Origin: Propionibacteriaceae bacterium
GTDB lineage: Bacteria > Actinomycetota > Actinomycetes > Propionibacteriales > Propionibacteriaceae
Assembly: GCA_031256725.1 (NCBI GenBank)
Contig: JAIRQE010000006.1
Location: 60,001 to 92,000 of the forward strand
Length of the DNA stretch: 32,000 nucleotides
Reading direction: 5' to 3'
Shown here: positions 1 through 29,269 of the stretch, piece by piece
Position numbering within the stretch: the stretch's first letter is position 1
How the letters are laid out: every line of letters begins with the position of its first letter
Notes under the pieces: generated by a model
What the model was told of the DNA's origin: nothing
The model's database searches: none
The model's input: only the letters and a program-made list of their open reading frames with translations
Translations under genes and position numbers: made by a program

Positions 1-75
1 ATCAGTACGGTATCCGTCACGCTCATGGTCAGAAGTCTATCGAAGTACACCTTCTTCGATCCGAAGGATCGGTTT

Positions 76-104
76 TTGACCGTGTTCAAAAAAAATAGTA
101 GGCT
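76..104 (+). promoter_or_regulatory. Candidate promoter of the first lic operon: -35 TTGACC (76-81), 17-nt spacer containing an A8 run (88-95), -10 TAGGCT (99-104)
   Basis: Read directly from the sequence. TAGGCT is the same -10-like hexamer found in front of dapD, dapE and leuB in this window. The -35 is overlapped by the inverted repeat TTTTTGA-CCGTGT-TCAAAAA (73-92). Confidence 0.35.
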
Positions 105-159
105 TTCGAAAATTGAACATTTTGTGAGGGTTAGTCCTCCGAGTACTAGTGAAGAAGAT

Positions 160-1950
160 ATGACTACGAATCTAACTGAGGCCGAGTTCATTGTCCTGAG
201 CCATGTGGCAACTCAGGATTCCGCGGATTCCTCATCCGTTTTTGTGTCACCACAGATTCCTCATCAAAGCGTCGATTCCATTGTCGAAGCACTTCAATCT
301 AGGGGGTATCTCAATGGTTTTGCAGTGACTCCGGTAGGAGTTGCTGTTCTGGAGCCATACAAAGTTAGAAACGCAGTAGTCATGGCTGCAGGAATGTCGA
401 CACGCTTCGCACCGATCTCCTATGAGAAACCAAAAGGATTATTGACCGTCGGTGGTGAAGTTCTTATCGAGCGAACAATCCGCCAACTTCAAGAGGTCGG
501 GATCACTGAGATTACCGTCGTTCTTGGGTACATGATGGAACAATTCCTCTATCTTGAGGACATGTTTGGGGTCAAGATTCGGATTAATCCTGAATACTCA
601 AGCCGAAACACAAACTCTACACTGAAGCTCGTTGAAGACCTTCTTGACAACACCTATATCTGTTATGCAGACAACTATTATGCGAGGAATATCTTCGAAC
701 CCTATGCATACCATGCGTACTATTCAAGTGCCTACCATGAGGGGCCGACTCAAGAGTGGGCACTAACTGTTGATGAAAGAGACCGGATCACTCAGGTCAC
801 TCCTGGTCTAGGTGATTCCTGGGTCATGTGGGGACCAGTGTACTTTGATCGTCAATTCTCTCGGGACTTTGTGCCAATTCTTAACCGTGTTTACGATGAC
901 CCAGAAACTCCACCAAAACTCTGGGAGGCTATCTATGCAGACCATGTTACCGAAGTGGATATGCGAATCCGACGCTATGAAGCTGGGGTGATCTTTGAGT
1001 TTGATTCCTTGGAGGAATTAAAAGCCTTTGATGAAAACTTCATGGTTAATGTTGATTCTTCTATTCTTGATAACATATGCACTACCCTCAATGTTGCCCG
1101 ATCCGACCTTGGAGAGTTTTCTCCCATGACAGATGGACTCTCAAATCTTTCGTTTTCCTTCACCGCGCAGGGTAAGAAATATGTCTACCGTCATCCAGGG
1201 GCATTCACGGTAGGAATTAACGATCGAGTGGCTGAGGCCCAAGCTGAAAAGGTCGCTCAAGATCTAGGCTTAGATAAGAGCTATATATACCTAAATCCTG
1301 AGAAAGGGTGGAAGATCTCTCACTTCATTGATGTGAGTGAACCCTTCGACTATCACAATCCTATACATGTGGCCCGCAGTTTAGATTCAATAAGGCGGCT
1401 TCATCATTCTGGACGAAACATCGAAGCCTCCTTTGACCTTTACGACGAGGGGCTTAAAATCACTGATCGGCTCATGTCCATTGGTGTTGGTGGTGCGACT
1501 CCACGATTCGATTTTCCGGATTTCTACCTACTTAAGGATCGTGCGGCTCGATTGAAGGAGCTTACTGATTCTGACCAAGTTGGAAAAGTCTTGTGCCACA
1601 ATGATTTTTACGAGCCCAATATTCTCATCACTGATAAGGATATTTATCTTATCGACTGGGAATTTTCGGGAATGAATGACTACGCCAGCGATTTGGGTAC
1701 TCTTATCTGTTGCTCGGATTACACCTATGAAGAGGCGCTGGACGTTTTAGCAGTCTACTTCGGTCGAACCCCTACTGATGCCGAGATTAAGCATTGTGTG
1801 GCTCATATTTCTTTGTCCGGTTACTACTGGTGGATCTGGGCACTCAATAAGGATGTCTGCGGAGAACCGGTAGGCGAGTGGACTCACTTATGGTATCGAT
1901 TTGCTAAAGAATATGGGCGAAAAGCTATAGAACTTTACGAAAGAGGATAG
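160..1950 (+). CDS. Tri-domain enzyme, paralog 1 (divergent): degenerate winged-helix N-domain + LicC-like nucleotidyltransferase + LicA-like choline/ethanolamine-type kinase
   Basis: ORF track gives 25..1950. NTP-transferase loop VVMAAGMSTRFAPISYEKPKGLL. Kinase motifs LCHNDFYEPNILI and LIDWEFSGMNDYASDLG. I prefer the start at ATG160 (MTTNLTEAEF...). Positions 60-125 are AT-rich and promoter-like, and the resulting 596 aa matches the 592-aa paralog at 3196..4974. Confidence 0.8.
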   Translation: MTTNLTEAEFIVLSHVATQDSADSSSVFVSPQIPHQSVDSIVEALQSRGYLNGFAVTPVGVAVLEPYKVRNAVVMAAGMSTRFAPISYEKPKGLLTVGGEVLIERTIRQLQEVGITEITVVLGYMMEQFLYLEDMFGVKIRINPEYSSRNTNSTLKLVEDLLDNTYICYADNYYARNIFEPYAYHAYYSSAYHEGPTQEWALTVDERDRITQVTPGLGDSWVMWGPVYFDRQFSRDFVPILNRVYDDPETPPKLWEAIYADHVTEVDMRIRRYEAGVIFEFDSLEELKAFDENFMVNVDSSILDNICTTLNVARSDLGEFSPMTDGLSNLSFSFTAQGKKYVYRHPGAFTVGINDRVAEAQAEKVAQDLGLDKSYIYLNPEKGWKISHFIDVSEPFDYHNPIHVARSLDSIRRLHHSGRNIEASFDLYDEGLKITDRLMSIGVGGATPRFDFPDFYLLKDRAARLKELTDSDQVGKVLCHNDFYEPNILITDKDIYLIDWEFSGMNDYASDLGTLICCSDYTYEEALDVLAVYFGRTPTDAEIKHCVAHISLSGYYWWIWALNKDVCGEPVGEWTHLWYRFAKEYGRKAIELYERG

Positions 1951-1952
1951 TC

Positions 1953-3188
1953 ATGGAAACCTTCGGGACAGTTGTTGTCTACATCATCATGGCCTGTGCC
2001 GTGACTGGAATGATCGTATCCATCGTGAAACCCAAGGCACAATTAGGCAAGGAGTTCCTTGCTGGTATTGATTCAATCGGACCGATCTTCCTGCCAGTGG
2101 CAGGCATCATGGCGGCAGCTCCTTATCTCACTACATTTGTTTCTTATGTCTTCGGCCCTGTCTTCGCTGCTCTTCAAGCTGATCCAGCGATGGCTGCGGG
2201 ATCACTCATTGCGGTCGACATGGGTGGATACCAACTGGCTGAGGCTCTCGCTGAAACGAGGGAATCCTGGATGATGGCAACCATGGCTGCTTATACCCTC
2301 GGTGGAGCTATTGTTTTCACAATTCCAGTAGGTCTGCGCATGATCCAGCGTCGTGACCACAAGTTTTTTGCTCTAGGAACGATGTGTGGAATTTTGGCAG
2401 TACCTGTGTCTGTCTTGATTTTCTCCATGATCTTGGTAGTCACAAATCCGGTGATTCGAGATGCCATCAACACCTCGGGGCCGGCAACCTATGTCCTATC
2501 TCTGGCTTGGACTACAGTGGGTCGCAACCTCATTCCATTGCTTGTTTTATGTGTACTTCTGGCTCTTGGTTTGATGTTTATCACTGACGCTATGATCAAA
2601 GGGTTTATCGTTTTTGGACGTAGCCTTGAAGCTGCCCTCAAGATAGTCTTCGTACTGGTTGTTGTGGACTACTTCACTGGCCTTCCCTCCCGTCTCATGG
2701 GTGCGCTCTTCCAGTTTGAGCCTATCATTGCTGACGAAGCAGATATATTCCGGGCTCTTGAAGTAGCAGGTGCGGTTGGTATCATGCTTTGCGGTGCTTT
2801 TCCAATGGTTCATCTCATCAAAACCTACCTTGCGAAACCCCTTACGGTAATCGGGAAGTTCTTTCACCTGAGTCCGGAGGCCACTGCTGGAATCCTGGCA
2901 GCTTCAGCCAATGGTATTGCTCTGTTCGCGATGTTCAAGCATCTTAAAGGGAGAGATAAGGTTATCACTGTCGCCTTTGTTATCTGCTCTGGCTATCTTT
3001 TTGGTGATCACCTTTCATTTACTGCAAACTTCCAGCCTTCGATGATTGCTCCTGTCATGATTGCTAAGGTGACTGGTGGGGTCCTCGGAATAGTCTTTGC
3101 TTTCCTTTTAGCTGTTAAGAAAGCAGACCAACTAGAGGCGACACAAATGGAGTTGGATCAAGTAGTTGAGAAAGTTGTGACAAACTAG
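1953..3188 (+). CDS. eutH: EutH-family permease (ethanolamine-transporter family)
   Basis: 411 aa and strongly hydrophobic. Blocks match enterobacterial EutH as I recall it: ADPAMAAGSLIAVDMGGYQLAEALA, IVFTIPVGL..RRDHKFFALG, FRALEVAGAVGIMLCGAFPMV, ASANGIALFAMFKHLKGRDKVITVAF..GDHLSFTA. The ATG lies 2 nt after the upstream stop and is preceded by AGAGGA. Confidence 0.8.
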   Translation: METFGTVVVYIIMACAVTGMIVSIVKPKAQLGKEFLAGIDSIGPIFLPVAGIMAAAPYLTTFVSYVFGPVFAALQADPAMAAGSLIAVDMGGYQLAEALAETRESWMMATMAAYTLGGAIVFTIPVGLRMIQRRDHKFFALGTMCGILAVPVSVLIFSMILVVTNPVIRDAINTSGPATYVLSLAWTTVGRNLIPLLVLCVLLALGLMFITDAMIKGFIVFGRSLEAALKIVFVLVVVDYFTGLPSRLMGALFQFEPIIADEADIFRALEVAGAVGIMLCGAFPMVHLIKTYLAKPLTVIGKFFHLSPEATAGILAASANGIALFAMFKHLKGRDKVITVAFVICSGYLFGDHLSFTANFQPSMIAPVMIAKVTGGVLGIVFAFLLAVKKADQLEATQMELDQVVEKVVTN

Positions 3189-3195
3189 GGCTGCA

Positions 3196-4974
3196 ATGAG
3201 ATCAGAACATTACGTCGCCCTATGTAGGCAGTTGTGCGCTAATCCGACCCTGACTCAGCGAGATCTTGCTTCTCGACTAGGAGTCTCTCTTGGGCTTATT
3301 AACCTCACGCTTAAAGAGTCCATCGTTCAAGGGTATCTTCGAAAAGAGGGAGCTAAAACCCTGCTCACCGATGAAGGGCAGAGTTACCTTGACCAATTCA
3401 AAGTAGACAATGCAATCATTCTCGCTGCTGGTTTCGGATCTAGATTCGTACCTTTCACATATGAGACACCCAAAGGGTTGTTGAAGGTCAAGGGTGTACC
3501 CATGGTGGAGCGCCAGATTGAACAACTCATTGCTGCTGGTATCAAAGAGATCATCATTGTTGTGGGCTATCGAAAAGAAGCTTTCGACTATCTCATTGAT
3601 AAGTATGGTGTCACGCTGGTGTATAACCCTGAATATGCAGAAAAAAATAATTTCGTCAGTATGTATTATGCGCTCGATTATCTGAAAAGCACCTATGTGC
3701 TCATGTCGGATAACTGGATTGAAGAGAGCATCTTCAACGCATGGGAGTCACGGTGTTGGTTTTCCTGTCTGTACTTTGAGGGAAAGACTGCAGAATGGAT
3801 TGCCCATAGTGGTTCTCGGGATAAGATCACGAAAATTGAAATAGGTGGAGAGGATGCCTGGGCAATCTTAGGCCCTGCGTATTTTACGCGAGATTTTTCA
3901 GAGACTTTCGCCGAACTTATTCGGGAGCATTATCATAGTCCAGGAACTGACAATGACTATTGGGAGCATATTCTTAAAGACAATCTGGGGTCGCTTCCTC
4001 CGATGTACATGAATAAGCAATCTAGAACCAATGTCTATGAGTTCGAGAATCTGGAGGAGTTGAGGGAATTCGATGAGTCTTATCGGCTGGATTCCGATAA
4101 TGTCATCATCCGGGAGATTTCGCAGGCCCTTAATGTTTCTCCAGACATGATCTGCCGCATCACCCCACTTAAGGTAGGAGCTAGCAATCTCTCATTCACT
4201 TTCTATGTGGATTCACAAGGGTATGTATTTCGTACCCCAGGCTTAGGGACTGAGAAGCTCATCAATCACGCCCAGGAGAAAGCAGCCTATGATGTGCTGA
4301 TTGATGTAGGGATTACTGATGAGATTGTGGCCTTCAATTCACAGCGGGGCACGAAGATCACCAAGTTCTATGAGGGGGTACATGTTGTTGATCCCTCGGA
4401 TGTTGGTCAACTGACAGAGGCTGTACGCCTTATTAAAACCCTACATACAAGCGGCCTTTCCACTGGGTACGCCTGCGATATTGAAAAAATGATTTCTTGT
4501 TACCGTGACCTGGCTGAAGAAATTAATGCTATTCGATTTGTGGACTTTGATGAAGTGACTTTATCTATAGACAAATTGCTTAATCTCAAGCGAAAAATTG
4601 CTGTTGAACCAGTACTGTGCCATGGTGATTTCACTAATACTAATGTTATCCTTTTTCCAGATGGCTCAGGGAAACTCATCGACTGGGAATACTCCGGAAT
4701 GGCCGACCCTATCATGGACATCTCAATGTTTGCTATCGATTCAATTATGGATCGCCCTCAAATTGACCAGTTTATGAGGATGTATATTTCCGAACCCACC
4801 CGTGAAGAATGGTGTCGATTGTATCTTTATGTCGCACTCGGGGGCTTTCTGTGGTCTATCTGGGCAGAATACAAACAGGCCAGTGGACAAGAGTTTGGTG
4901 AGTATCCTCTCAAGATGTATCGCTATGCGAAAGACTACTATTCAATCCTTGTCCACGAAGGCTACTTGGCTTAG
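3196..4974 (+). CDS. Tri-domain enzyme, paralog 2 (canonical): MarR-like winged helix + LicC-like CTP:phosphocholine-type cytidylyltransferase + LicA-like kinase
   Basis: N-terminal HTH: PTLTQRDLASRLGVSLGLINLTLKESIVQGYL. Transferase: AIILAAGFGSRFVPFTYETPKGLL and VGYRKEAFDYLIDKYGVTLVYNPEYAEKNNFVSMY, close to pneumococcal LicC as I recall it. Kinase: LCHGDFTNTNVIL and LIDWEYSGMADPIMDIS. It starts 7 nt after the eutH stop. Confidence 0.85.
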   Translation: MRSEHYVALCRQLCANPTLTQRDLASRLGVSLGLINLTLKESIVQGYLRKEGAKTLLTDEGQSYLDQFKVDNAIILAAGFGSRFVPFTYETPKGLLKVKGVPMVERQIEQLIAAGIKEIIIVVGYRKEAFDYLIDKYGVTLVYNPEYAEKNNFVSMYYALDYLKSTYVLMSDNWIEESIFNAWESRCWFSCLYFEGKTAEWIAHSGSRDKITKIEIGGEDAWAILGPAYFTRDFSETFAELIREHYHSPGTDNDYWEHILKDNLGSLPPMYMNKQSRTNVYEFENLEELREFDESYRLDSDNVIIREISQALNVSPDMICRITPLKVGASNLSFTFYVDSQGYVFRTPGLGTEKLINHAQEKAAYDVLIDVGITDEIVAFNSQRGTKITKFYEGVHVVDPSDVGQLTEAVRLIKTLHTSGLSTGYACDIEKMISCYRDLAEEINAIRFVDFDEVTLSIDKLLNLKRKIAVEPVLCHGDFTNTNVILFPDGSGKLIDWEYSGMADPIMDISMFAIDSIMDRPQIDQFMRMYISEPTREEWCRLYLYVALGGFLWSIWAEYKQASGQEFGEYPLKMYRYAKDYYSILVHEGYLA

Positions 4975-6119
4975 TCCACCAGTTCCCTGGCAATGCTTAT
5001 TAAGGCTTGAGCGGTCTGATCCCATGTGAAGGTGCTTTCTACCCGCGCACGGGTCTTGTTGGCCGCACTGTGCCGCCATCGGTCATTGGTAAGGGCTTCG
5101 ATAAGGAGTTCAGCGATAGTTTGTTCATTGTGTGCGGGCAAGATGCCGCCATATTCTTTGGAGAGGATTAATTCTGGGGTTCCACCGACGGGTGTTGTAA
5201 CCATAAAAGTACCAAGGGCTCCCGCTTCAAGTACTACTGTTGAGAAGCCCTCAGAATGTGAAGGTAGGCAAAAGATATCTGCTTGACTGAGGAGAGATAG
5301 AGCTCGTTCGTGTGTGAGTCCGCCAACATAGATCACCCCAGCCTGATTGTGAGCTTCAAGCTGGCTGTGCAGGGGGCCTTCACCAGCGATGATTAGAACG
5401 CACTCAGGAACGGTGAGTTGAGTAACTCTCATTGCTTCCAGAAGCTCAGGAATGCCCTTTTCGGGTAGGAGACGTCCAACAAAGGCAATGAGTTTCATCG
5501 AGGCCGGGATTGAGAAGTCATCACGGACGTTCCATGCACCCTGTGCTGCTTGCTTCACGGTTTGATTGATGTTGATGGCGTTATAGAGAATCTCTACATC
5601 ATTGATTGCAAAGGTTTTCAGCCACGAAGCACTCTGCTGAGATACAGCAGCAAATTTCGAGGCATATCTCTTCATCCACCATGCAGCAATGTGTTCATAG
5701 ATTCGAATGATTGTATTGAGTGCATAATTACCCATGGTTAAATAACTGGATCCATGTTCAAGAACAATGCAGGGAATTCCTCGCTTCGCGCATGCACGAG
5801 CTGCCCATAGTGACAGTGCCCAGAATCGTGTATTAATCAATGCAAGGTCGAAGTTGCCTACCGCAATATCCTTCATCAGTGATCGGAAATTTCGGTTAAA
5901 ACGCGGTAGAGGATAACGCCCAGCGAGCATAGGAATCGAAGGTACTCGAACGATTTTTACTGCGTCTTCATTCTCACTTATCGGAGTATCAGGAAGTTGG
6001 CTAGCAATGATAGTCACTTCATGGCCCGCATGGGTAAGTGCTTGGGCCAGATAGTGAGTGTACCTCTCTACTCCACCTATTGTGGGGAGGTACTGTGCGG
6101 AGAAGAGAGCGAATTTCAT
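4971..6119 (-). CDS. GT4-family glycosyltransferase
   Basis: ORF track gives 4971..6143. Typical GT4 N-terminus MKFALFSAQYLPTIGGVERY and E-x7-E block EGFSTVVLEAGALG. I prefer ATG6119, which has purine-rich GAGAAAG upstream. The longest ORF starts at 6143. Confidence 0.8.
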   Translation of the reverse strand: MKFALFSAQYLPTIGGVERYTHYLAQALTHAGHEVTIIASQLPDTPISENEDAVKIVRVPSIPMLAGRYPLPRFNRNFRSLMKDIAVGNFDLALINTRFWALSLWAARACAKRGIPCIVLEHGSSYLTMGNYALNTIIRIYEHIAAWWMKRYASKFAAVSQQSASWLKTFAINDVEILYNAININQTVKQAAQGAWNVRDDFSIPASMKLIAFVGRLLPEKGIPELLEAMRVTQLTVPECVLIIAGEGPLHSQLEAHNQAGVIYVGGLTHERALSLLSQADIFCLPSHSEGFSTVVLEAGALGTFMVTTPVGGTPELILSKEYGGILPAHNEQTIAELLIEALTNDRWRHSAANKTRARVESTFTWDQTAQALISIARELVD

Positions 6120-6215
6120 GTGATGGCTTTCTCTTTCTATCATTCCTCAGGGTTACCTATTGGCTCATGGTACTAGACTACCTAGGTCAGGGAAGCACAA
6201 GATAGGAGTGAGTGG

Positions 6216-7043
6216 GTGGCTGACCAAAGTGATGTGCGTGACATTCAACTGCGACTATTGTCCATTTTGAAACTGATCCAAGCCGTGTGCGAGCGTCATG
6301 AAATTAGATTCTTTCTTGCTTATGGAACTTTACTGGGTGCGGTACGTCATAAGGGTTTCATTCCTTGGGATGATGACGTTGATATTTTCATGACCAGACA
6401 AGACTATGAAAAACTCTTTTCAGTGCGAGATGAACTTGGGCCCGACTTCATTATTCAAGAATGGAGGACCACGCCTGAGTATTGGTGTTCTTATCCGAAA
6501 GTACGACAACTTCGGCCTAAGCCTTATATAGAATCACTGATTGCTGATGTAACCGAGAAGAACGGCTTATTTATCGATATCTTTGTGCTAGATGGCTTGC
6601 CTCGGGAACGTTCTCTAGCCCAGTGGCTAGTGGCTGAGGTTCTCAACTTTGCTCGGATTCTTCTTTTGCTTAAAGATATTGGCCCACGAGATCCACGCCC
6701 ACTCATTAAGGCAATCAGTCCACTAGCCAGACTCATTCCGCGATCCTTGATTGCCAAAGTGATGGAGTGGGGATGGTCGCGGTGGAAAGATGGGCCTGCA
6801 ACCTGGCTTGTTCCATATGCGGATCCCGATCTTCGTAATAGTCCGATTCGAGCAAGTGCAATTTTATCAAATGGGGGGGGGTGCTCCATGGTTGAATTTG
6901 AGGGCATTCCCATGCCATGTCCTCGTGATTCAGAGGGATTTCTTCACACCTATTACGGTGATTACATGCAGCTTCCACCTGAAGATCAAAGAGCCTGTCA
7001 TGATATGCGTAGGAACCCCGACTACCATCCGGATGAAGGTTAA
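6216..7043 (+). CDS. licD: LicD-family phospho-alcohol (phosphocholine-type) transferase
   Basis: LLGAVRHKGFIPWDDDVDIFM (LicD acidic motif) and C-terminal YYGDYMQLPPEDQR. GTG6216 has AGGAG (6204-6208) 7 nt upstream. Confidence 0.85.
   Translation: MADQSDVRDIQLRLLSILKLIQAVCERHEIRFFLAYGTLLGAVRHKGFIPWDDDVDIFMTRQDYEKLFSVRDELGPDFIIQEWRTTPEYWCSYPKVRQLRPKPYIESLIADVTEKNGLFIDIFVLDGLPRERSLAQWLVAEVLNFARILLLLKDIGPRDPRPLIKAISPLARLIPRSLIAKVMEWGWSRWKDGPATWLVPYADPDLRNSPIRASAILSNGGGCSMVEFEGIPMPCPRDSEGFLHTYYGDYMQLPPEDQRACHDMRRNPDYHPDEG
6873..6881 (+). repeat. G9 homopolymer tract inside licD (encodes GGG, residues 220-222)
   Basis: Counted directly: g6873 to g6881. It is the longest G/C homopolymer I found in the window. 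Confidence 0.95.
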
Positions 7044-7046
7044 TAC

Positions 7047-8354
7047 GTGCTTCATCGGATTCTTACCAACTCGAAGAACGTCAATCGAAGTGCCTACATC
7101 TGGAACATGATTGCGAGCATCCTGGCAGCAGCACAGTCGATGGTGATGATCTTTGGGGCTTCCAGTCTTCTTGGCGTGGCTGCTACAGCTGTGATTTCGC
7201 TAGCATCTGCGTACACCTATACTCTGTCAACTATTGGTGCTTTTGGAATGAGAAGATTCCATGCTTCAGATGCGGACCGCCAGTATTCCCAACGTGAATA
7301 CCTATGGTCGAGATTCATAACAGTGAATGCCATGTTCGTGATTGCCGCGGTCTTCATTGTGATGAAATCTTGGGATCCGCAGTCTACGCCGATGAAACTT
7401 GGAGTTATTGCAATACTGGTTCTGATTAGGGCCGTTGACTGCATTGACGATGTCATTACTGGGCATTTTCAGCAGACGGGTCGCCTAGACATTGGATCAC
7501 GGATCACGGCATTGCGTTTAGTCGTGTGTACTCTCGGCTTTCTCGTTTCCTTGATTATCACTCGTGATCTGATGCTTAGTCTGATCATCAGTTTCGTACT
7601 CTCACTTCTTGTTCTGGCGGTACTTGCTCGATCCGCTTTGCAGGGCTATGACCCTGATCGTGTACGTACCGTTGACAGGGTAAAAGTGTGGAAACTCCTG
7701 TGGGCTTGCATGCCATTGTTTATCTGGGGTTTTCTTGGGATGTATATCACTAATGCACCCAAGTTTGGGATTGAATCCGCCATGGAAGGAATAGCTCAGA
7801 AGCAGGCCCAAGCTTGCTACGGGATAATTTCAATGCCTGCTTTTGTGATCTCTTTGTTGAGTGGTCTGGTTTTTCATCCCATTATCCATTCCCTTTCTCG
7901 ACAGTGGTTGGATCGGGATTTGGTTGGTTTTGGGCGAACAGTAACCCGAATATCTCTCGTTATCTTAGGGATCACTGCTGCTTGTGTTACTGGAGGAGCA
8001 CTTCTAGGCTTGCCTATCCTTTCGCTAGCATCTCCTTTAGTCGATCTTGGGGGATTAGAACTCGAACTCGCAATACTCCTCTTAGGTGGAGGATTTACCG
8101 CTTTTTCTGCATTCTTCTCAACAGTGCTGACGATTATGCGTCGACAACTGGCTGCTGCCGTTGCTTTGGGTGTAGCTGCGGCTTTCGGACTGACTTCTCA
8201 CTGGTGGGCTCAGTGGCAAGGACTTTTGGGGGTTTGTTTATTGTTTTTAACAATGTACGCCCTCAACACCCTCATTGCAGGGGTGCTGATATGGTGGACT
8301 TGGCGGTCTCGACGATTTAAGGGAACACCCCATTCTGAGGCCAGTACGACGTAG
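7047..8354 (+). CDS. Multi-pass membrane protein, probably a Wzx/MOP-type glycan flippase (polymerase not excluded)
   Basis: 435 aa with about 12 hydrophobic segments. GTG start lies 3 nt after the licD stop. The N-terminal region NRSAYIWNMIASIL...GMRRF resembles polysaccharide-transporter N-termini. No catalytic motif recognised. Confidence 0.45.
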   Translation: MLHRILTNSKNVNRSAYIWNMIASILAAAQSMVMIFGASSLLGVAATAVISLASAYTYTLSTIGAFGMRRFHASDADRQYSQREYLWSRFITVNAMFVIAAVFIVMKSWDPQSTPMKLGVIAILVLIRAVDCIDDVITGHFQQTGRLDIGSRITALRLVVCTLGFLVSLIITRDLMLSLIISFVLSLLVLAVLARSALQGYDPDRVRTVDRVKVWKLLWACMPLFIWGFLGMYITNAPKFGIESAMEGIAQKQAQACYGIISMPAFVISLLSGLVFHPIIHSLSRQWLDRDLVGFGRTVTRISLVILGITAACVTGGALLGLPILSLASPLVDLGGLELELAILLLGGGFTAFSAFFSTVLTIMRRQLAAAVALGVAAAFGLTSHWWAQWQGLLGVCLLFLTMYALNTLIAGVLIWWTWRSRRFKGTPHSEASTT

Positions 8355-8368
8355 ACACAAGGAGGATC

Positions 8369-9418
8369 ATGGCTCGCGTGATGCATGTTCTTTTATCTGG
8401 AGGATACTCTGGGGCAGAGAATGTGGCTGCGACCATTGCTCTGCTTGAAAAAGAGAATGAACATATCTATGTTTCTCCTCCAGGTGTCATTTCCTCTGTC
8501 TTGGAGCGGTTAGGTATTCGACACGTTGAGGTACCTAGGGTCACACCTTCAGCGATCTCGCGGGTGATCCGAGAACACTGCCCGAATGTCGTCCATGCCC
8601 ACGATATAGGAGCGGCAACCATAGTTGCCCTCGATCACCTTGTTCATCGACACTACCGATTGTTGACTCATATTCACTGCAACCATCCCAATATGCGTCG
8701 TGTAAGTGTCCGATCTTTGCTACTGCTTTTTGTGAACACTCAATCTGACGCACTTTTCGTAGTCTCACGTCCTGTGATCGACGACTATCTATTTAAGAAG
8801 TGGATTAAGACTCCGACGGTGCTTCCCAATGTCGTTAATGAGGAACTCATTATGGAGTCCAGCAGAAAGAGCCTGGCCAAAAATATTGATGTTGTATTTC
8901 TGGCTAGGCTCACTCACCCAAAGAACCCCCTCGGATTCATTGATGTCATAGCTGGAGTACGAAAGTCGATTCCGGGTCTGAAAGTCGTCGTCATTGGAGA
9001 CGGAGAACTGGCAGAACAGACGAAGGCCAAAACGGTCGGCGAAGGCCTTGAAGATGTCGTCGAATTCTTGGGTTTCCAGGCCAATCCTTATCCTTATGTT
9101 AAGCAGGCAAGAATCTGTGTCCTCACATCAGTATGGGAAGGCTATCCCATGTCGGCTCTTGAAGCCATGCTCTTAGGAGTGCCCATAGTATGTACCGATG
9201 TTGGGGGTTTGCCACAGATGGTCAACGACTCAGTGGGTAGGGTTTGTACGACTTTAGCTCAGATCGAAGAAGAAGTGATACATCTATTATCGGATCCTAA
9301 GTATCTTGAAGAAAAGACAGCCAAGACCACAGACCATGCTCGTCAAATCAACAATGTGAAGGGTTTCAAACAGATCCTTTCGAGCACCTATCACCGCCTA
9401 GCTGAGATGAGTCGGTAA
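8369..9418 (+). CDS. GT4-like glycosyltransferase
   Basis: E-x7-E block EGYPMSALEAMLLGVPIVCTDVGGLPQMV. Strong SD AAGGAGG upstream of ATG8369. Confidence 0.75.
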   Translation: MARVMHVLLSGGYSGAENVAATIALLEKENEHIYVSPPGVISSVLERLGIRHVEVPRVTPSAISRVIREHCPNVVHAHDIGAATIVALDHLVHRHYRLLTHIHCNHPNMRRVSVRSLLLLFVNTQSDALFVVSRPVIDDYLFKKWIKTPTVLPNVVNEELIMESSRKSLAKNIDVVFLARLTHPKNPLGFIDVIAGVRKSIPGLKVVVIGDGELAEQTKAKTVGEGLEDVVEFLGFQANPYPYVKQARICVLTSVWEGYPMSALEAMLLGVPIVCTDVGGLPQMVNDSVGRVCTTLAQIEEEVIHLLSDPKYLEEKTAKTTDHARQINNVKGFKQILSSTYHRLAEMSR

Positions 9419-9426
9419 ACACTGGA

Positions 9427-9482: not shown

Positions 9483-9556
9483 GCGAATGTAGCTCAATGG
9501 TAGAGCCCCAGCCTTCCAAGCTGGTCATGCGGGTTCGATTCCCGTCATTCGCTCCA
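9483..9556 (+). tRNA. tRNA-Gly (anticodon UCC), CCA encoded
   Basis: Hand-folded cloverleaf. Acceptor GCGAATG/CATTCGC, anticodon stem CCAGC/GCTGG with loop CTTCCAA, T-arm GCGGG-TTCGATT-CCCGT, discriminator T, then CCA. Confidence 0.9.
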
Positions 9557-9561
9557 AAGAA

Positions 9562-10449
9562 CTAGAAACGTACGATCACCGTTGTTGATGACTGGGAGGA
9601 ATCGGTACGTCCAACCCAACCAGTCAGGGTCTTATCAGAGGCCTTCCATTCGTAGCTGCCAATTGTCACTTCTTTCACTCCGGTTTCAGTGGCCCAACTT
9701 TGTGCAAAAGCTGCCACGGACCATGCGATCTCTTCATTGGAGGCGGTGAGGGTGACGTAGGGGTCTTCGGATGATGTTCCTGGAGTCACCACAGCGTGTA
9801 CCGTTGCACCGTATGCTCGTGTCATTGAGGAAACTAAGAGTTCGGGGTTCGCGGGAGCTGGGTTATACACAATACAGGACCAGGACGCAGGGGTCTGGCC
9901 TGATAAGGATGAGGCTAGCAGCCGAGCGCGATCCACATGCTTGTCATAAGCATCAGGGAAGCCACTGCGTTGAACGGCTTGAGCCACGTCACCAATATCG
10001 GAGTTCTGCCAGTCGCTGACTTTCACCATCTCATCGAAGAATTTCCCTGTTGAATAGTAGGGATCCATGATCTGCTCCTCCGTACCCCAGCCTTGGGAGG
10101 GGCGCTGTTGGAAGATGCCGAGTGAATCGCGATCACCATAATCAAGGTTGCGGATATCGGACTCTTGGAAGGCGGTGGTGATTGCAATCGATACTGCCCG
10201 GGGTACTAGTCCGCGTTGGGCAGCGATACCTGCCATCAGGGAGGCGTACCTCGACTGATCTATGGTGATGCTTGCTGAGCCTGAATCGAGTTGTGCCCGG
10301 CACAGGGTGGCAGGTGGTGGGGGAGGATCTTCTACCCATAGGGACGAGGCCCAACGGTAGGCGCCCCAGAACCCTGCGATGAGTGCCAAGACGACGAGTC
10401 CTATGCCGAGGCCGATCATGATGGTTTTGAAGGTTGATGAATCTTTCAT
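9562..10449 (-). CDS. Membrane-anchored conserved actinobacterial protein with a lytic-transglycosylase-like motif
   Basis: N-terminal TM segment TIMIGLGIGLVVLALIAGFW, then a proline run. FQESDIRNLDYGDRDSLGIFQQRP parallels the SLT pattern E-S...G-L-M-Q. It starts 2 nt after the dapD stop, so it is probably co-transcribed. Confidence 0.5.
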   Translation of the reverse strand: MKDSSTFKTIMIGLGIGLVVLALIAGFWGAYRWASSLWVEDPPPPPATLCRAQLDSGSASITIDQSRYASLMAGIAAQRGLVPRAVSIAITTAFQESDIRNLDYGDRDSLGIFQQRPSQGWGTEEQIMDPYYSTGKFFDEMVKVSDWQNSDIGDVAQAVQRSGFPDAYDKHVDRARLLASSLSGQTPASWSCIVYNPAPANPELLVSSMTRAYGATVHAVVTPGTSSEDPYVTLTASNEEIAWSVAAFAQSWATETGVKEVTIGSYEWKASDKTLTGWVGRTDSSQSSTTVIVRF

Positions 10450-29007: not shown

Positions 29008-29083
29008 TGGCAGCCCCGAAGGGATTCGAACCCTCGCTACCGCCGTGAGAGGGCGGCGTGCTAGACCGCTACACAACGGGGCC
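29008..29083 (-). tRNA. tRNA-Glu (anticodon CUC), CCA encoded
   Basis: Reverse complement GGCCCCGTTGTGTAGCGGTCTAGCACGCCGCCCTCTCACGGCGGTAGCGAGGGTTCGAATCCCTTCGGGGCTGCCA. Anticodon stem CCGCC/GGCGG with loop CTCTCAC. Confidence 0.9.
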
Positions 29084-29133
29084 ACGCGCTTGCGCGAAGA
29101 TAAGTGTAGCAGAAGTTTTCACTGGAGTCTTAC

Positions 29134-29163
29134 TTGAGCAAAGACCCCTCAGTCAGCTAAAGT
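29134..29163 (+). promoter_or_regulatory. Candidate tRNA-Gln promoter: -35 TTGAGC, 18-nt spacer, -10 TAAAGT
   Basis: Read directly. The -10 ends 23 nt before the tRNA 5' end. Confidence 0.35.
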
Positions 29164-29186
29164 TAGTCCTCGGCAGTAAGCTCCCA

Positions 29187-29258
29187 TGGGGTATGGGGTA
29201 ATTGGCAGCCCTACGGATTCTGGTTCCGTCAGTCTAGGTTCGAGTCCTAGTACCCCAA
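29187..29258 (+). tRNA. tRNA-Gln (anticodon CUG), CCA not encoded
   Basis: Acceptor TGGGGTA/TACCCCA, anticodon stem ACGGA/TCCGT with loop TTCTGGT, T-arm CTAGG-TTCGAGT-CCTAG. Confidence 0.9.
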
Positions 29259-29269
29259 CGTAGACCAAG

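Follow-up and report, generated by a model that had tools for sequence, protein, structure and literature searches.

Phosphocholine (P-Cho) and phosphoethanolamine (P-Etn) on the bacterial surface are bound by host C-reactive protein and other pentraxins, and such decoration also anchors choline-binding proteins. To our knowledge, almost all that is understood of the mechanism comes from pneumococcus and Haemophilus, whose lic systems lead from a kinase through a CTP:phospho-alcohol cytidylyltransferase to LicD, which transfers the activated group to a glycan; in the pneumococcal lic2 locus, the gene order is tacF-licD1-licD2. The known P-Etn transferases of the EptA/BcsG type depend on phosphatidylethanolamine, a chemistry unlike that of the LicD route proposed below.

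Several other systems employ related enzymes. Treponema denticola has a fused LicCA, which makes CDP-choline and feeds it to a cholinephosphotransferase (CPT) for phosphatidylcholine, as related in PMC8590670 with reference to Kent 2004. Mf1 of Mycoplasma fermentans, a member of the LicD family that acts on glucosyl-diacylglycerol, can transfer either P-Cho or P-Etn in vitro, with CDP-choline or CDP-ethanolamine as the donor (PMC11982090). In the phosphonate tailoring of Atopobium, Olsenella, and Treponema, the LicC-fold enzyme PntC activates the primary amine AEP for surface glycans of Coriobacteriia, and the Treponema enzyme (Tde-PntC) has Glu in place of D192 of LicC, a residue that, together with D105, has a role in the choline pocket of LicC (PMC6697681). 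The pneumococcal LicC itself favors P-Cho ~2700-fold over P-Etn (PMC6697681).

A low-GC accessory segment between two tRNA genes

The locus lies in a 32,000-nt stretch of DNA (the window) from an uncultured member of the Propionibacteriaceae known only as a MAG. A sequence-only reading had described positions 1–9418 as a low-GC island that ends at a tRNA-Gly and may continue past the left edge. The GC shift is real, with 46.9% at 1–9418 versus 53.3% at 9419–32000, but smaller than the hand counts behind that description implied, the ranges of 37–48% and 52–60% being noise of 60-nt lines. GC in 1-kb windows is 0.45–0.49 in the left part and 0.49–0.56 in the right part; all seven genes of the region fall at 44.7–48.4%, the 21 genes to its right have a mean of 53.3% (SD 1.9), and GC3 is 45.5% in the former versus 53.0% in the latter. 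The tRNA-Gly does form the right boundary, but the segment measures 16.7 kb, not 9.4 kb, since low GC runs 7.3 kb further past the left edge, to a tRNA-Pro; its GC is 46.9–50%, versus 53–55% outside.

The order dapD-295aa-tRNA-Gly is a conserved core found also in the relatives L087 and L089, and the tRNA-Gly, as part of this core, has its 3′ end facing away from the island. L089 matches both flanks (MarC 76%, TrmB 66%, TruA 64%, and DapD 76% identity) but carries between tRNA-Gly and tRNA-Pro only ~2.9 kb with unrelated genes, and three relatives are without the island beside dapD. Given this absence at the same site in a relative with the same flanks, and the deviant composition, the 16.7-kb segment is accessory. 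No integrase occurs among its called genes, and searches for att sites found neither a repeat of the 3′ end of either tRNA gene nor direct repeats bracketing the segment.

The window opens within a GT2 gene (L001 6148–6855, minus strand; window −657 to 50), whose product scores 74.5 bits against Pfam Glycos_transf_2 and 263 bits, over its full length, against the NCBIfam PpgS model NF058614 (cut-off 370). Beyond it, in the whole left flank of ~9.9 kb, lie DUF2304, two DUF6541 membrane proteins (putative glycosyltransferases; a search for a PDB relative of DUF6541 found none), HipBA, and the tRNA-Pro. This part resembles the mycobacterial PpgS/Rv3632/Rv3779 system for GalN modification of arabinogalactan in that a GT2 matching PpgS along its length is followed by DUF2304, presumably the counterpart paired with Rv3632, and by large polytopic membrane proteins, but it differs in that the GT2 stays below the equivalog cut-off.

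Table 1. Features of the left part of the window (window coordinates)
Feature	Position	Strand	Evidence or remark
PpgS-like GT2, 5′ end (polyprenyl-phosphate sugar synthase type)	1..50	−	gene extends beyond left edge
LicCA1 (ORF1): degenerate N-terminal winged helix + LicC-like + LicA-like	160..1950	+	NTP-transferase + choline-kinase/APH
EutH-family permease	1953..3188	+	Pfam EutH PF04346, 374.7 bits, full length
LicCA2 (ORF3): winged helix + LicC + LicA fusion, choline type (likely)	3196..4974	+	NTP-transferase + choline-kinase/APH
GT4a glycosyltransferase	4971..6143	−	Glycos_transf_1 111.5 bits, Glyco_transf_4 90.5 bits
LicD-family phospho-alcohol transferase	6216..7043	+	Pfam LicD PF04991, 116.7 bits (cut-off 22.6)
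G9 homopolymer inside licD	6873..6881	+	codons 220–222
Wzx/MOP-type lipid-linked oligosaccharide flippase, 435 aa, multi-pass membrane	7047..8354	+	homologues + AF2 fold
GT4b glycosyltransferase, last gene of LicD-Wzx-GT4 unit	8369..9418	+	Glycos_transf_1 99.8 bits
tRNA-Gly(TCC)	9483..9556	+	ARAGORN + Rfam; right boundary

Two divergent LicCA fusions

LicCA2 matches LicC (E=2.7e-41) and LicA (E=2.6e-31) by sequence, with MurU 4Y7T at E=2e-9, and its AF2 model (pLDDT 89) superposes on LicC 1JYK (TMt 0.93–0.94, rmsd 1.4 Å, 36% identity) and LicA 4R77 (TMt 0.85–0.86), compared with TMt 0.71–0.74 for MurU. The corresponding PDB matches of LicCA1 are LicC 1JYK (E about 6e-35), LicA 4R77 (E=9e-15), and MurU 4Y7T (1.5e-7). 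Both proteins are therefore LicC- and LicA-like, as had been read from the sequence; the N-terminal winged helix ascribed to both is well supported only in LicCA2 (HTH_24 25.1 bits; H-H-H-beta-beta at residues 3–57 of the AF2 model) and is weak in LicCA1 (TrmB E=0.08). The LicCA1 start is probably the ATG at 160, which gives 596 aa as in homologues; of the alternatives at 25 and 76, the former would run into the divergent GT2 gene, which begins at window 50. The fusion of kinase to cytidylyltransferase does occur in two copies, but these are not simple duplicates, being 34% identical, from two subfamilies, and with different partners.

Fused LicCA homologues number at least 2374, and at least 580 fused loci occur among GTDB species representatives. 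The equivalents of LicC D107 and E216 are invariant in 130 fused proteins, both window copies included, and the D192 position is Glu, as in Tde-PntC, in every fused LicCA examined. An unbiased scan of alignment columns, choline-type versus EutH-linked proteins, returned just two discriminating columns, one of which is the position of W136, which we take, like Y190, to be a residue of the choline aromatic box of pneumococcal LicC: it is Trp in 81/81 choline-type proteins and Tyr in 39/44 EutH-linked ones. At the V178 pocket position of LicA, EamA-linked proteins have Phe and EutH-linked proteins Tyr, and the two form separate clades in an NJ tree, with LicCA1 in the EutH-linked clade B.

At the LicC pocket positions, LicCA2 keeps W136 and has Tyr at Y190, with Met for D105 and Glu for D192; at those of LicA, as defined in PMC4364537, it keeps the catalytic D176, N181, D194, and E196 together with Y197, W251, W254, and Y268. 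Its subfamily adjoins choline-binding-repeat proteins in 47/61 Firmicutes loci and BCCT transporters in seven loci, and Treponema loci occur among its relatives; the T. denticola LicCA is assumed to belong here. From these neighbors and relatives, LicCA2 is quite likely the choline branch. No importer for that branch was found in the locus, the DMT-like permease that is paired with LicCA2 in L082 and L084 being missing.

LicCA1 likewise conserves the D/N/D/E catalytic set in its LicA-like part and D107/E216 in its LicC-like part. At its pocket positions, Y190 is replaced by Leu, D105 by Tyr, and D192 by Glu on the LicC side, W136 being kept, while on the LicA side W251 and W254 are kept, Y197 is Phe, and Y268 is Trp. 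The LicC loop AAGxGxR reads AAGMSTR (G to S). The Trp at the W136 position makes LicCA1 one of the few exceptions among EutH-linked proteins, and its retention counts against an ethanolamine-type reading of this enzyme.

A recurrent partnership with EutH

The EutH of the window aligns through residues 5–386 with profile positions 2–351 of 351 of PF04346 and scores 559.4 bits against NCBIfam NF011668, under the cut-off of 575. No eut genes (EutBC operon context) lie near it; instead, its conserved partner is of the LicCA1 type, directly upstream in 47/51 metagenomic loci with an EutH at least 55% identical, versus 3/20 loci with a more distant EutH. The more distant homologues adjoin dehydrogenases, not eut operons, implying that the substrate range of the family is broader than ethanolamine. 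The LicCA–EutH pair is a recurrent module, common in Coriobacteriia and Propionibacteriaceae of gut and termite gut, and the EutH is presumed to import the amino-alcohol substrate of LicCA1; LicCA1 and EutH may, tentatively, form an ethanolamine-type branch.

Importers seen paired with LicCA subfamilies comprise EutH, a LicB-like DMT permease, BCCT, and NCS1. The fused LicCA enzymes form several subfamilies, each with its own importer, and gut Gram-positive anaerobes combine LicCA–importer pairs within one locus: the multi-paralogue loci L065 and L094 of Coriobacteriia hold an EutH-linked paralogue alongside an EamA (LicB-like)-linked one. The parts list noted as non-canonical is so relative to pneumococcus and Haemophilus, but LicCA fusions are widespread and their pairing with EutH is the rule among close EutH homologues.

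LicD, flippase, and glycosyltransferases

The assignments of EutH, a single LicD, and two GT4 enzymes are borne out by Pfam scores (Table 1), and the reported intergenic gaps of 2, 7, 3, and 14 nt agree with the gene coordinates. LicD bears the motif GFIPWDDDVD (DxD, WDDDVD) and matches the catalytic domain of FKRP (6KAJ, E=2.6e-5); it would take a CDP-amino-alcohol donor. Its best NCBIfam match is the cholinephosphotransferase Mf1, which extends over just 60 residues and scores 75.9 bits where the cut-off is 225.

The flippase-like protein has no direct Pfam match over its 435 aa, yet it is of the Wzx/MurJ type by homologue families and fold: it is 50% identical to a PF01943 protein of L082 (51.4 bits, cut-off 28.2), PF01943 is found in 10/17 homologues, two of which are named 'oligosaccharide flippase' by NCBI, and its AF2 model (pLDDT 89) has MurJ and WzxE as best PDB matches (TM 0.67–0.71). 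GT4a, whose gene runs toward that of LicCA2 and overlaps it by 4 nt, is 50% identical to the GT4 adjoining LicD and Wzx in L082, a related MAG with the same parts in another order and at another site. The set of LicD, GT4, and Wzx with fusions recurs in L082 and L065.

As had been stated, LicB is lacking: two tblastn queries, the LicB-like EamA protein from L077 and a DMT-like protein of 362 aa from L082, found nothing in the window or in L001, and the gene table for the remaining ~3 kb of the ~9.9 kb left flank shows no LicB/EamA-like permease either. The reported absence of a priming transferase, LCP ligase, and polymerase from the window extends to the called genes of the left flank. Neither does the window, in any ORF, or the left flank, in its called genes, hold a CDP-alcohol phosphatidyltransferase; tarIJ and teichoic-acid backbone genes are absent from the locus, and no acceptor is visible there.

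Proposed pathway and its alternatives

The region is very probably a lic-type glycan decoration cluster, as first proposed, both fusions matching LicC/LicA far better than MurU. It shares with the pneumococcal and Haemophilus systems the succession of kinase, cytidylyltransferase, and LicD, domains in LicCA2 that superpose on LicC and LicA, and, as in lic2, a LicD adjoining a MOP flippase; it differs in that a winged helix precedes a fused kinase–cytidylyltransferase in two divergent copies, an EutH permease is present but no LicB, there is one LicD, and tarIJ and backbone genes are wanting. The resemblance to PntC extends to the Glu at D192, but the locus is without Ppm or phosphonate genes, and the kinase domain of the fusions, unlike PntC, points to an alcohol that needs prior phosphorylation. 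The locus represents a variant of the lic pathway that is widespread though uncharacterised.

Judged from the gene content, the 16.7-kb accessory segment is probably a cell-envelope glycan cluster in which two branches feed one LicD, and the region is its right-hand 9.4 kb. The amino alcohol would be imported via EutH, phosphorylated with ATP by the C-terminal LicA-like domain of the LicCA fusion, and converted with CTP to a CDP-amino-alcohol by the central LicC-like domain. The two GT4 enzymes would make a lipid-linked oligosaccharide, and LicD would then transfer the phospho-amino-alcohol to a hydroxyl on one of its sugars; the Wzx-type flippase would bring the decorated unit across the membrane, and housekeeping enzymes encoded elsewhere would attach it to the wall or to a membrane anchor. 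Outside the membrane, the neighboring PpgS-like GT2, DUF2304, and DUF6541 proteins probably contribute one more sugar from a polyprenyl-phosphate donor, and, speculatively, the N-terminal winged helix may link transcription to the amount of enzyme or to its occupancy. The two activation branches would be non-redundant, LicCA2 serving choline and LicCA1 with EutH most likely ethanolamine or a related small amino alcohol; given the precedent of Mf1, a single LicD could serve both CDP donors. Most likely, P-Cho is attached to a cell-envelope sugar chain, and probably P-Etn as well. A more specific proposal, less likely than not, is that the EutH-linked LicCA is a dedicated Kennedy-type route from ethanolamine to CDP-ethanolamine, from which LicD puts P-Etn on cell-wall glycans on the cytoplasmic side, with a parallel choline branch and a promiscuous LicD yielding two zwitterionic decorations.

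Both fusions might instead activate choline, redundantly or under different regulation, with EutH as the choline importer replacing LicB and a purely P-Cho glycan as the product. LicCA1 does keep the Trp at W136 as well as both Trp residues in its LicA pocket, LicC and LicA are the best PDB matches of both fusions, and the locus has no other choline permease. This reading is nevertheless unlikely: the fusions, at their low identity, belong to deeply separated subfamilies, the coexistence of EutH-linked and LicB-like-linked paralogues in L065 and L094 speaks against redundancy, most EutH-linked enzymes have Tyr instead of Trp, and we know of no transport of quaternary amines by EutH.

The destination of the activated alcohol may also be questioned. 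Actinobacterial lipoglycans have glycolipid anchors, and a P-Cho/P-Etn glycoglycerolipid like the GGPL of M. fermentans, in which a GT4 would make glycosyl-diacylglycerol to be capped by LicD, would fit the best curated-family match of LicD and the weak matches of GT4a to monoglucosyl-DAG synthase (1.3e-10) and GlcN-PG synthase. It is improbable, however, since the Mf1 match is short and far under the equivalog cut-off, GT4a is closer to polysaccharide enzymes such as TuaC, and the neighboring Wzx/MurJ-type flippase suggests a polyprenyl-linked oligosaccharide. Very improbable is delivery of CDP-choline or CDP-ethanolamine to a membrane phospholipid by the Kennedy pathway; the fused LicCA of T. 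denticola, as described in PMC8590670 after Kent 2004, and the Treponema loci among LicCA2-type relatives lend it some color, but in contrast to that CPT-dependent route, the window and the 10 kb to its left lack a CDP-alcohol phosphatidyltransferase, and the fusions sit amid LicD, two GT4, and a flippase, a set repeated in L082 and L065. A role of the fusions in cell-wall sugar recycling, as sugar-1-kinase/uridylyltransferases of the AmgK/MurU type, is effectively refuted; the sequence-only reading had named this outcome as one that would overturn it. The APH-type kinase and NTP_transferase families are common to both, and there are weak MurU matches, but LicC and LicA are closer by sequence (LicC E about 1e-41 and 1e-35 versus MurU about 1e-9 and 1e-7) and by fold (LicCA2 TMt 0.93 for LicC and 0.86 for LicA in the kinase domain), and the genomic partners are LicD, small-amine permeases, and choline-binding proteins.

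Implications

If the EutH branch does make CDP-ethanolamine, it would be an undescribed cytoplasmic route to P-Etn-decorated glycans, and the Trp-to-Tyr change at LicC W136 would offer a simple metagenome marker for the predicted branch. The literature found agrees with the earlier remark that no actinobacterial system of such architecture has been characterised; candidate genes are now named for Actinobacteria, where ChoP, reported in Actinomyces, Micrococcus, and Corynebacterium, has antibody reactivity as its sole basis (PMC10434233).

A homopolymeric tract in licD

The G9 tract within licD is the longest homopolymer of the window, albeit not statistically exceptional. A slip of +1 truncates the product at 226 aa and one of −1 extends it to 297 aa, and the tract is a possible slipped-strand switch.

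The two LicC-LicA fusions

ORF1 and ORF3 each comprise an NTP-transferase domain and a choline-kinase/APH domain, yet they share just 34% identity and fall into two different subfamilies. Pneumococcal LicC (1JYK) is matched with E-values of 2.7e-41 by ORF3 and 6.5e-35 by ORF1, and pneumococcal LicA (4R77) with 2.6e-31 and 9.5e-15, respectively, whereas the values for the sugar-recycling enzyme MurU (4Y7T) are 2e-9 and 1.5e-7. In the AlphaFold model of ORF3 (pLDDT 89), a winged helix (residues 3-57) is followed by a LicC-like and a LicA-like domain, which superpose on LicC with a TMt of 0.93 (rmsd 1.4 Å) and on LicA with 0.86, compared with 0.71-0.74 for MurU. Because LicC and LicA surpass MurU both in sequence and in superposition, an AmgK/MurU-like fusion, which the sequence-only reading had named as the finding that would overturn a lic-type identity, is ruled out, and that identity stands. 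ORF1 most likely starts at ATG 160, since the resulting 596 aa fit the lengths of its homologues, whereas an ORF counted from 25 would share bases with the divergent GT2 gene. ORF1 has a degenerate winged-helix region, while the one at the N-terminus of ORF3 is modelled with confidence, fused to a metabolic enzyme; the domain is kept across the fused LicCA family, with HTH_24, MarR_2 and other HTH matches in many homologues.

Features of the locus, its borders and related loci (window positions unless a contig is named)
Feature	Position	Strand	Remark
LicCA1 (ORF1)	160-1950	+	
EutH	1953-3188	+	
LicCA2 (ORF3)	3196-4974	+	
ORF3 winged helix	3196-3370		residues 1-57
GT4a	4971-6143	-	
LicD	6216-7043	+	
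G9 run in licD	6873-6881		codons 220-222
435-aa protein	7047-8354	+	
GT4b	8369-9418	+	
tRNA-Gly(TCC)	9483-9556		
295-aa protein	9562-10449	-	between tRNA-Gly and dapD; no Pfam or NCBIfam match
tRNA-Glu(CTC)	within 29008-29259	-	divergent from tRNA-Gln, ~100 nt between them
tRNA-Gln(CTG)	within 29008-29259	+	
HipBA repeat, copy 1	about -6959 to -6905		left flank L171 2966-3020
HipBA repeat, copy 2	about -5237 to -5184		left flank L171 4688-4741
LicCA with NCS1 permease	L070 8774-13393		Streptococcus infantis OMI849
LicCA2 with 362-aa protein	L082 8559-9907		Propionibacteriaceae MAG
LicCA2 with 362-aa protein	L084 11769-13127		Propionibacteriaceae MAG
LicCA with YidC-TagF-like fusion	L083 1794-6196		
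LicCA with YidC-TagF-like fusion	L084 5576-9911		

Recurrence of the locus and its importers

The pathway logic and the LicC-LicA fusion are already known, the latter from T. denticola according to a passage of PMC8590670 that cites Kent 2004, and the architecture is found again in a large number of uncultured anaerobes and in some cultured ones. Homologues of ORF3 number at least 2374 (E < 1e-20) and come from Peptococcaceae, Coriobacteriia, Synergistales, Oscillospiraceae, Bacillus and others. At least 580 LicCA loci occur among GTDB species representatives; the close Propionibacteriaceae relatives come from a separate contig search, not from these loci. Of the parts list that had been called non-canonical, the absence of a LicB-like permease is borne out for the window and its left flank, but the list is not unique, as fused LicCA and the LicCA1-EutH pair recur widely.

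The ORF3-type loci L002-L062, from Firmicutes, Treponema and Fusobacterium, most often (47/61) have as direct neighbour a choline-binding-repeat protein of ~506 aa, mostly in two copies and a median of 103 nt away; a BCCT transporter is found in 7/61. ORF3-type LicCA and these repeat proteins form a compact module that would couple choline activation to choline-binding proteins. Two Propionibacteriaceae loci (L083 and L084) carry an ORF3-type LicCA divergent from a 750-aa fusion of YidC (60KD_IMP) and a TagF-like domain (Glyphos_transf), and also from an LtaS-like sulfatase-family protein of ~700 aa, an unusual teichoic-acid-like partner set for this family.

The ORF1 type, in a neighbour-joining tree of 130 LicCA sequences, comprises a Collinsella and Atopobium clade whose genes accompany EamA (LicB-like) permeases, two clades tied to EutH, with ORF1 in one of them, and a small third clade; loci such as L065 and L094 each contain an EamA-linked and an EutH-linked paralogue. 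Metagenomes were scanned with a three-sequence EutH alignment, a single EutH query having returned none. An ORF1-type gene lies directly upstream in 47 of the 51 informative loci whose EutH is at least 55% identical to that of the window, and in 3 of 20 below this value. All EutH-linked loci recovered are from MAGs or uncultured metagenomic contigs, L065 being from an uncultured Coriobacteriaceae MAG. NCS1 (Transp_cyt_pur) permeases are a further importer family: in a cultured streptococcus, a MarR regulator is followed by an ORF1-type LicCA and then by such a permease, with a phage-type integrase nearby. LicCA2 of L082 and L084 has two partners, a polytopic protein of 362 aa with a weak resemblance to EamA (25% identity, E=2.5e-12) and a short one of 86-88 aa; both are missing from the window and from its left flank. 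One dedicated importer for each LicCA appears to be the general rule. Neither for the EutH-linked subfamily nor for any lic locus of Actinobacteria was a characterised protein found in the literature, and phosphocholine in Actinobacteria has been described on the basis of antibody data (PMC10434233). The EutH-coupled branch is the part that deserves experiment.

Proposed substrates of the two branches

The choline-binding-repeat and BCCT neighbours mark the ORF3 type as a putative choline enzyme. When EutH-linked enzymes were compared column by column with choline-context ones (ORF3 type plus EamA-linked), two separating columns only were obtained. One is the position of W136 in pneumococcal LicC, which we take to be a member of the choline aromatic box, with Trp in 81/81 choline-context enzymes versus Tyr in 39/44 EutH-linked ones; ORF1, though EutH-linked, retains Trp. 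In the kinase pocket, for which the residues of LicA are given in PMC4364537, EamA-linked enzymes have Phe and EutH-linked enzymes have Tyr at the position of V178. The exchange of an aromatic face for a hydroxyl-bearing ring would suit a change of substrate, with a primary or secondary amine in place of a quaternary one. The D192 position was rejected as a substrate marker, because it is Glu in every fused LicCA, choline-context ones included.

EutH matches its Pfam family over the full length (374.7 bits), slightly under the NCBIfam equivalog cut-off. Homologues of 45-48% identity (L142, L148 and L153) lie beside short-chain dehydrogenases, aldehyde dehydrogenases and an FAD oxidase, and a eut context (eutBC) was looked for around them and not found. 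These neighbours weaken the ethanolamine call, and judging from them the EutH family seems to serve several small-alcohol pathways.

Proposed pathway and alternatives

LicD is a clear family match (116.7 bits) with a WDDDVD motif. Pfam gives no direct match for the 435-aa protein, which is assigned as a Wzx-type flippase on other grounds: a PF01943 protein of a related MAG shares 50% identity with it, 10 of its 17 homologues carry PF01943, two are named "oligosaccharide flippase" by NCBI, and its model (pLDDT 89) is closest to MurJ and WzxE (TM 0.67-0.71). PDB sequence searches with this protein, with DUF6541 and with the 362-aa DMT-like protein gave no match. The licD gene contains a G9 tract, the longest homopolymer of the 32-kb window, of a type expected ~0.5 times per 32 kb from composition alone; LicD would end early, at 226 aa, after a +1 slip and reach 297 aa after a -1 slip. 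In other bacteria, lic genes are phase-variable.

The enzyme families and their gene linkage are observed directly, and from them we infer the substrates, the acceptor and the final polymer of the following route. An amino alcohol would be imported, in the first branch by EutH, with ethanolamine or another primary amine as the candidate substrate, and in the choline branch by a protein encoded elsewhere, given that this locus lacks the DMT-like permease that accompanies LicCA2 in L082 and L084. It would then be phosphorylated by the LicA domain and cytidylylated by the LicC domain, and LicD would transfer the phospho-alcohol to a lipid-linked oligosaccharide built by GT4a and GT4b. Mf1, a LicD-family enzyme of Mycoplasma fermentans, transfers phosphocholine as well as phosphoethanolamine in vitro (PMC11982090), and a single LicD could therefore serve both branches here. 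The decorated unit would be flipped by the Wzx-type protein and attached by enzymes encoded elsewhere, while an extracytoplasmic sugar may be added by the PpgS-like GT2 together with the DUF2304 and DUF6541 proteins of the left flank.

Alternatively, choline may be activated by both branches, with EutH substituting for LicB; this would suit the Trp retained by ORF1, less so the Tyr of most EutH-linked enzymes, and is unlikely but worth keeping in view. A glycolipid resembling GGPL, the glycoglycerolipid of M. fermentans, would be in keeping with Mf1 as the best NCBIfam match of LicD, but is an improbable product of a locus that includes a Wzx-type flippase. A phospholipid pathway of the Kennedy type is more doubtful still, as a CDP-alcohol phosphatidyltransferase was looked for in the window and its left flank and not found, and AmgK/MurU-like recycling, to which the weak MurU matches would point, is hardly conceivable beside the LicC and LicA superpositions.

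Extent and accessory status of the segment

The contrast in composition noticed by the sequence-only reading was reproduced, with 46.9% GC in window 1-9418 versus 53.3% in the remainder. All seven genes of the region lie at 44.7-48.4%, against a mean of 53.3% (SD 1.9) for the 21 genes to the right, and GC3 is 45.5% versus 53.0%. The tRNA-Gly border was likewise located, and the ORF coordinates reproduce the reported gaps of 2, 7, 3 and 14 nt. The window belongs to an uncultured Propionibacteriaceae MAG; the ORF3 protein is 100% identical to NCBI MDR0488166.1, encoded on a 182.6-kb contig, and the same sequence occurs on a 50-kb Logan contig. The remaining window is housekeeping (dapD, dapE, glgA/glgC-like genes, gmk, rpoZ, metK, priA, fmt, rsmB and leu genes). 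Promoter and terminator scans gave matches at or below chance level, and tRNA was the only match of the Rfam scan.

In fetched sequence, the cluster runs on past the left edge of the window with a PpgS-like GT2 (263 bits over its full length, under the family cut-off), one protein with DUF2304 and two membrane proteins with DUF6541, HipBA, tRNA-Pro(TGG), MarC, TrmB and TruA, in this order outwards. Synteny with relatives, which the earlier reading had proposed to compare, revealed the same flanks without the segment in L089: MarC (76% identity), TrmB (66%) and TruA (64%) lie beyond tRNA-Pro, the 295-aa protein and DapD (76%) beyond tRNA-Gly, and only ~2.9 kb of small unrelated genes between the two tRNAs. 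The 295-aa protein adjoins dapD in three relatives (62-67% identity); dapE-dapD-295aa is kept in two further relatives, tRNA-Gly also in L087, and the genes beyond differ in each. Given the left-flank content and these gene orders, the accessory segment is ~16.7 kb long, between two tRNA genes, and its GC is 47% across the lic genes and 50% farther left, versus 53-55% in the flanks. A classical tRNA-integrated island was rejected, since no integrase was found among the called genes of segment and flank, no second copy of the tRNA-Gly or tRNA-Pro 3' end, and no direct repeat bracketing the whole segment. The related MAG L082 has LicCA1-EutH, DUF6541, DUF2304, GT2, LicCA2, LicD, GT4 and Wzx in a different order, ~70 kb from its own dapD, which argues for a functional set moving or rearranging as a unit. 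The sole notable repeat is direct but imperfect, ~55 bp long and 88-94% identical; its two copies enclose the HipBA toxin-antitoxin cassette, at the segment's left end, and suggest a separate insertion of HipBA.
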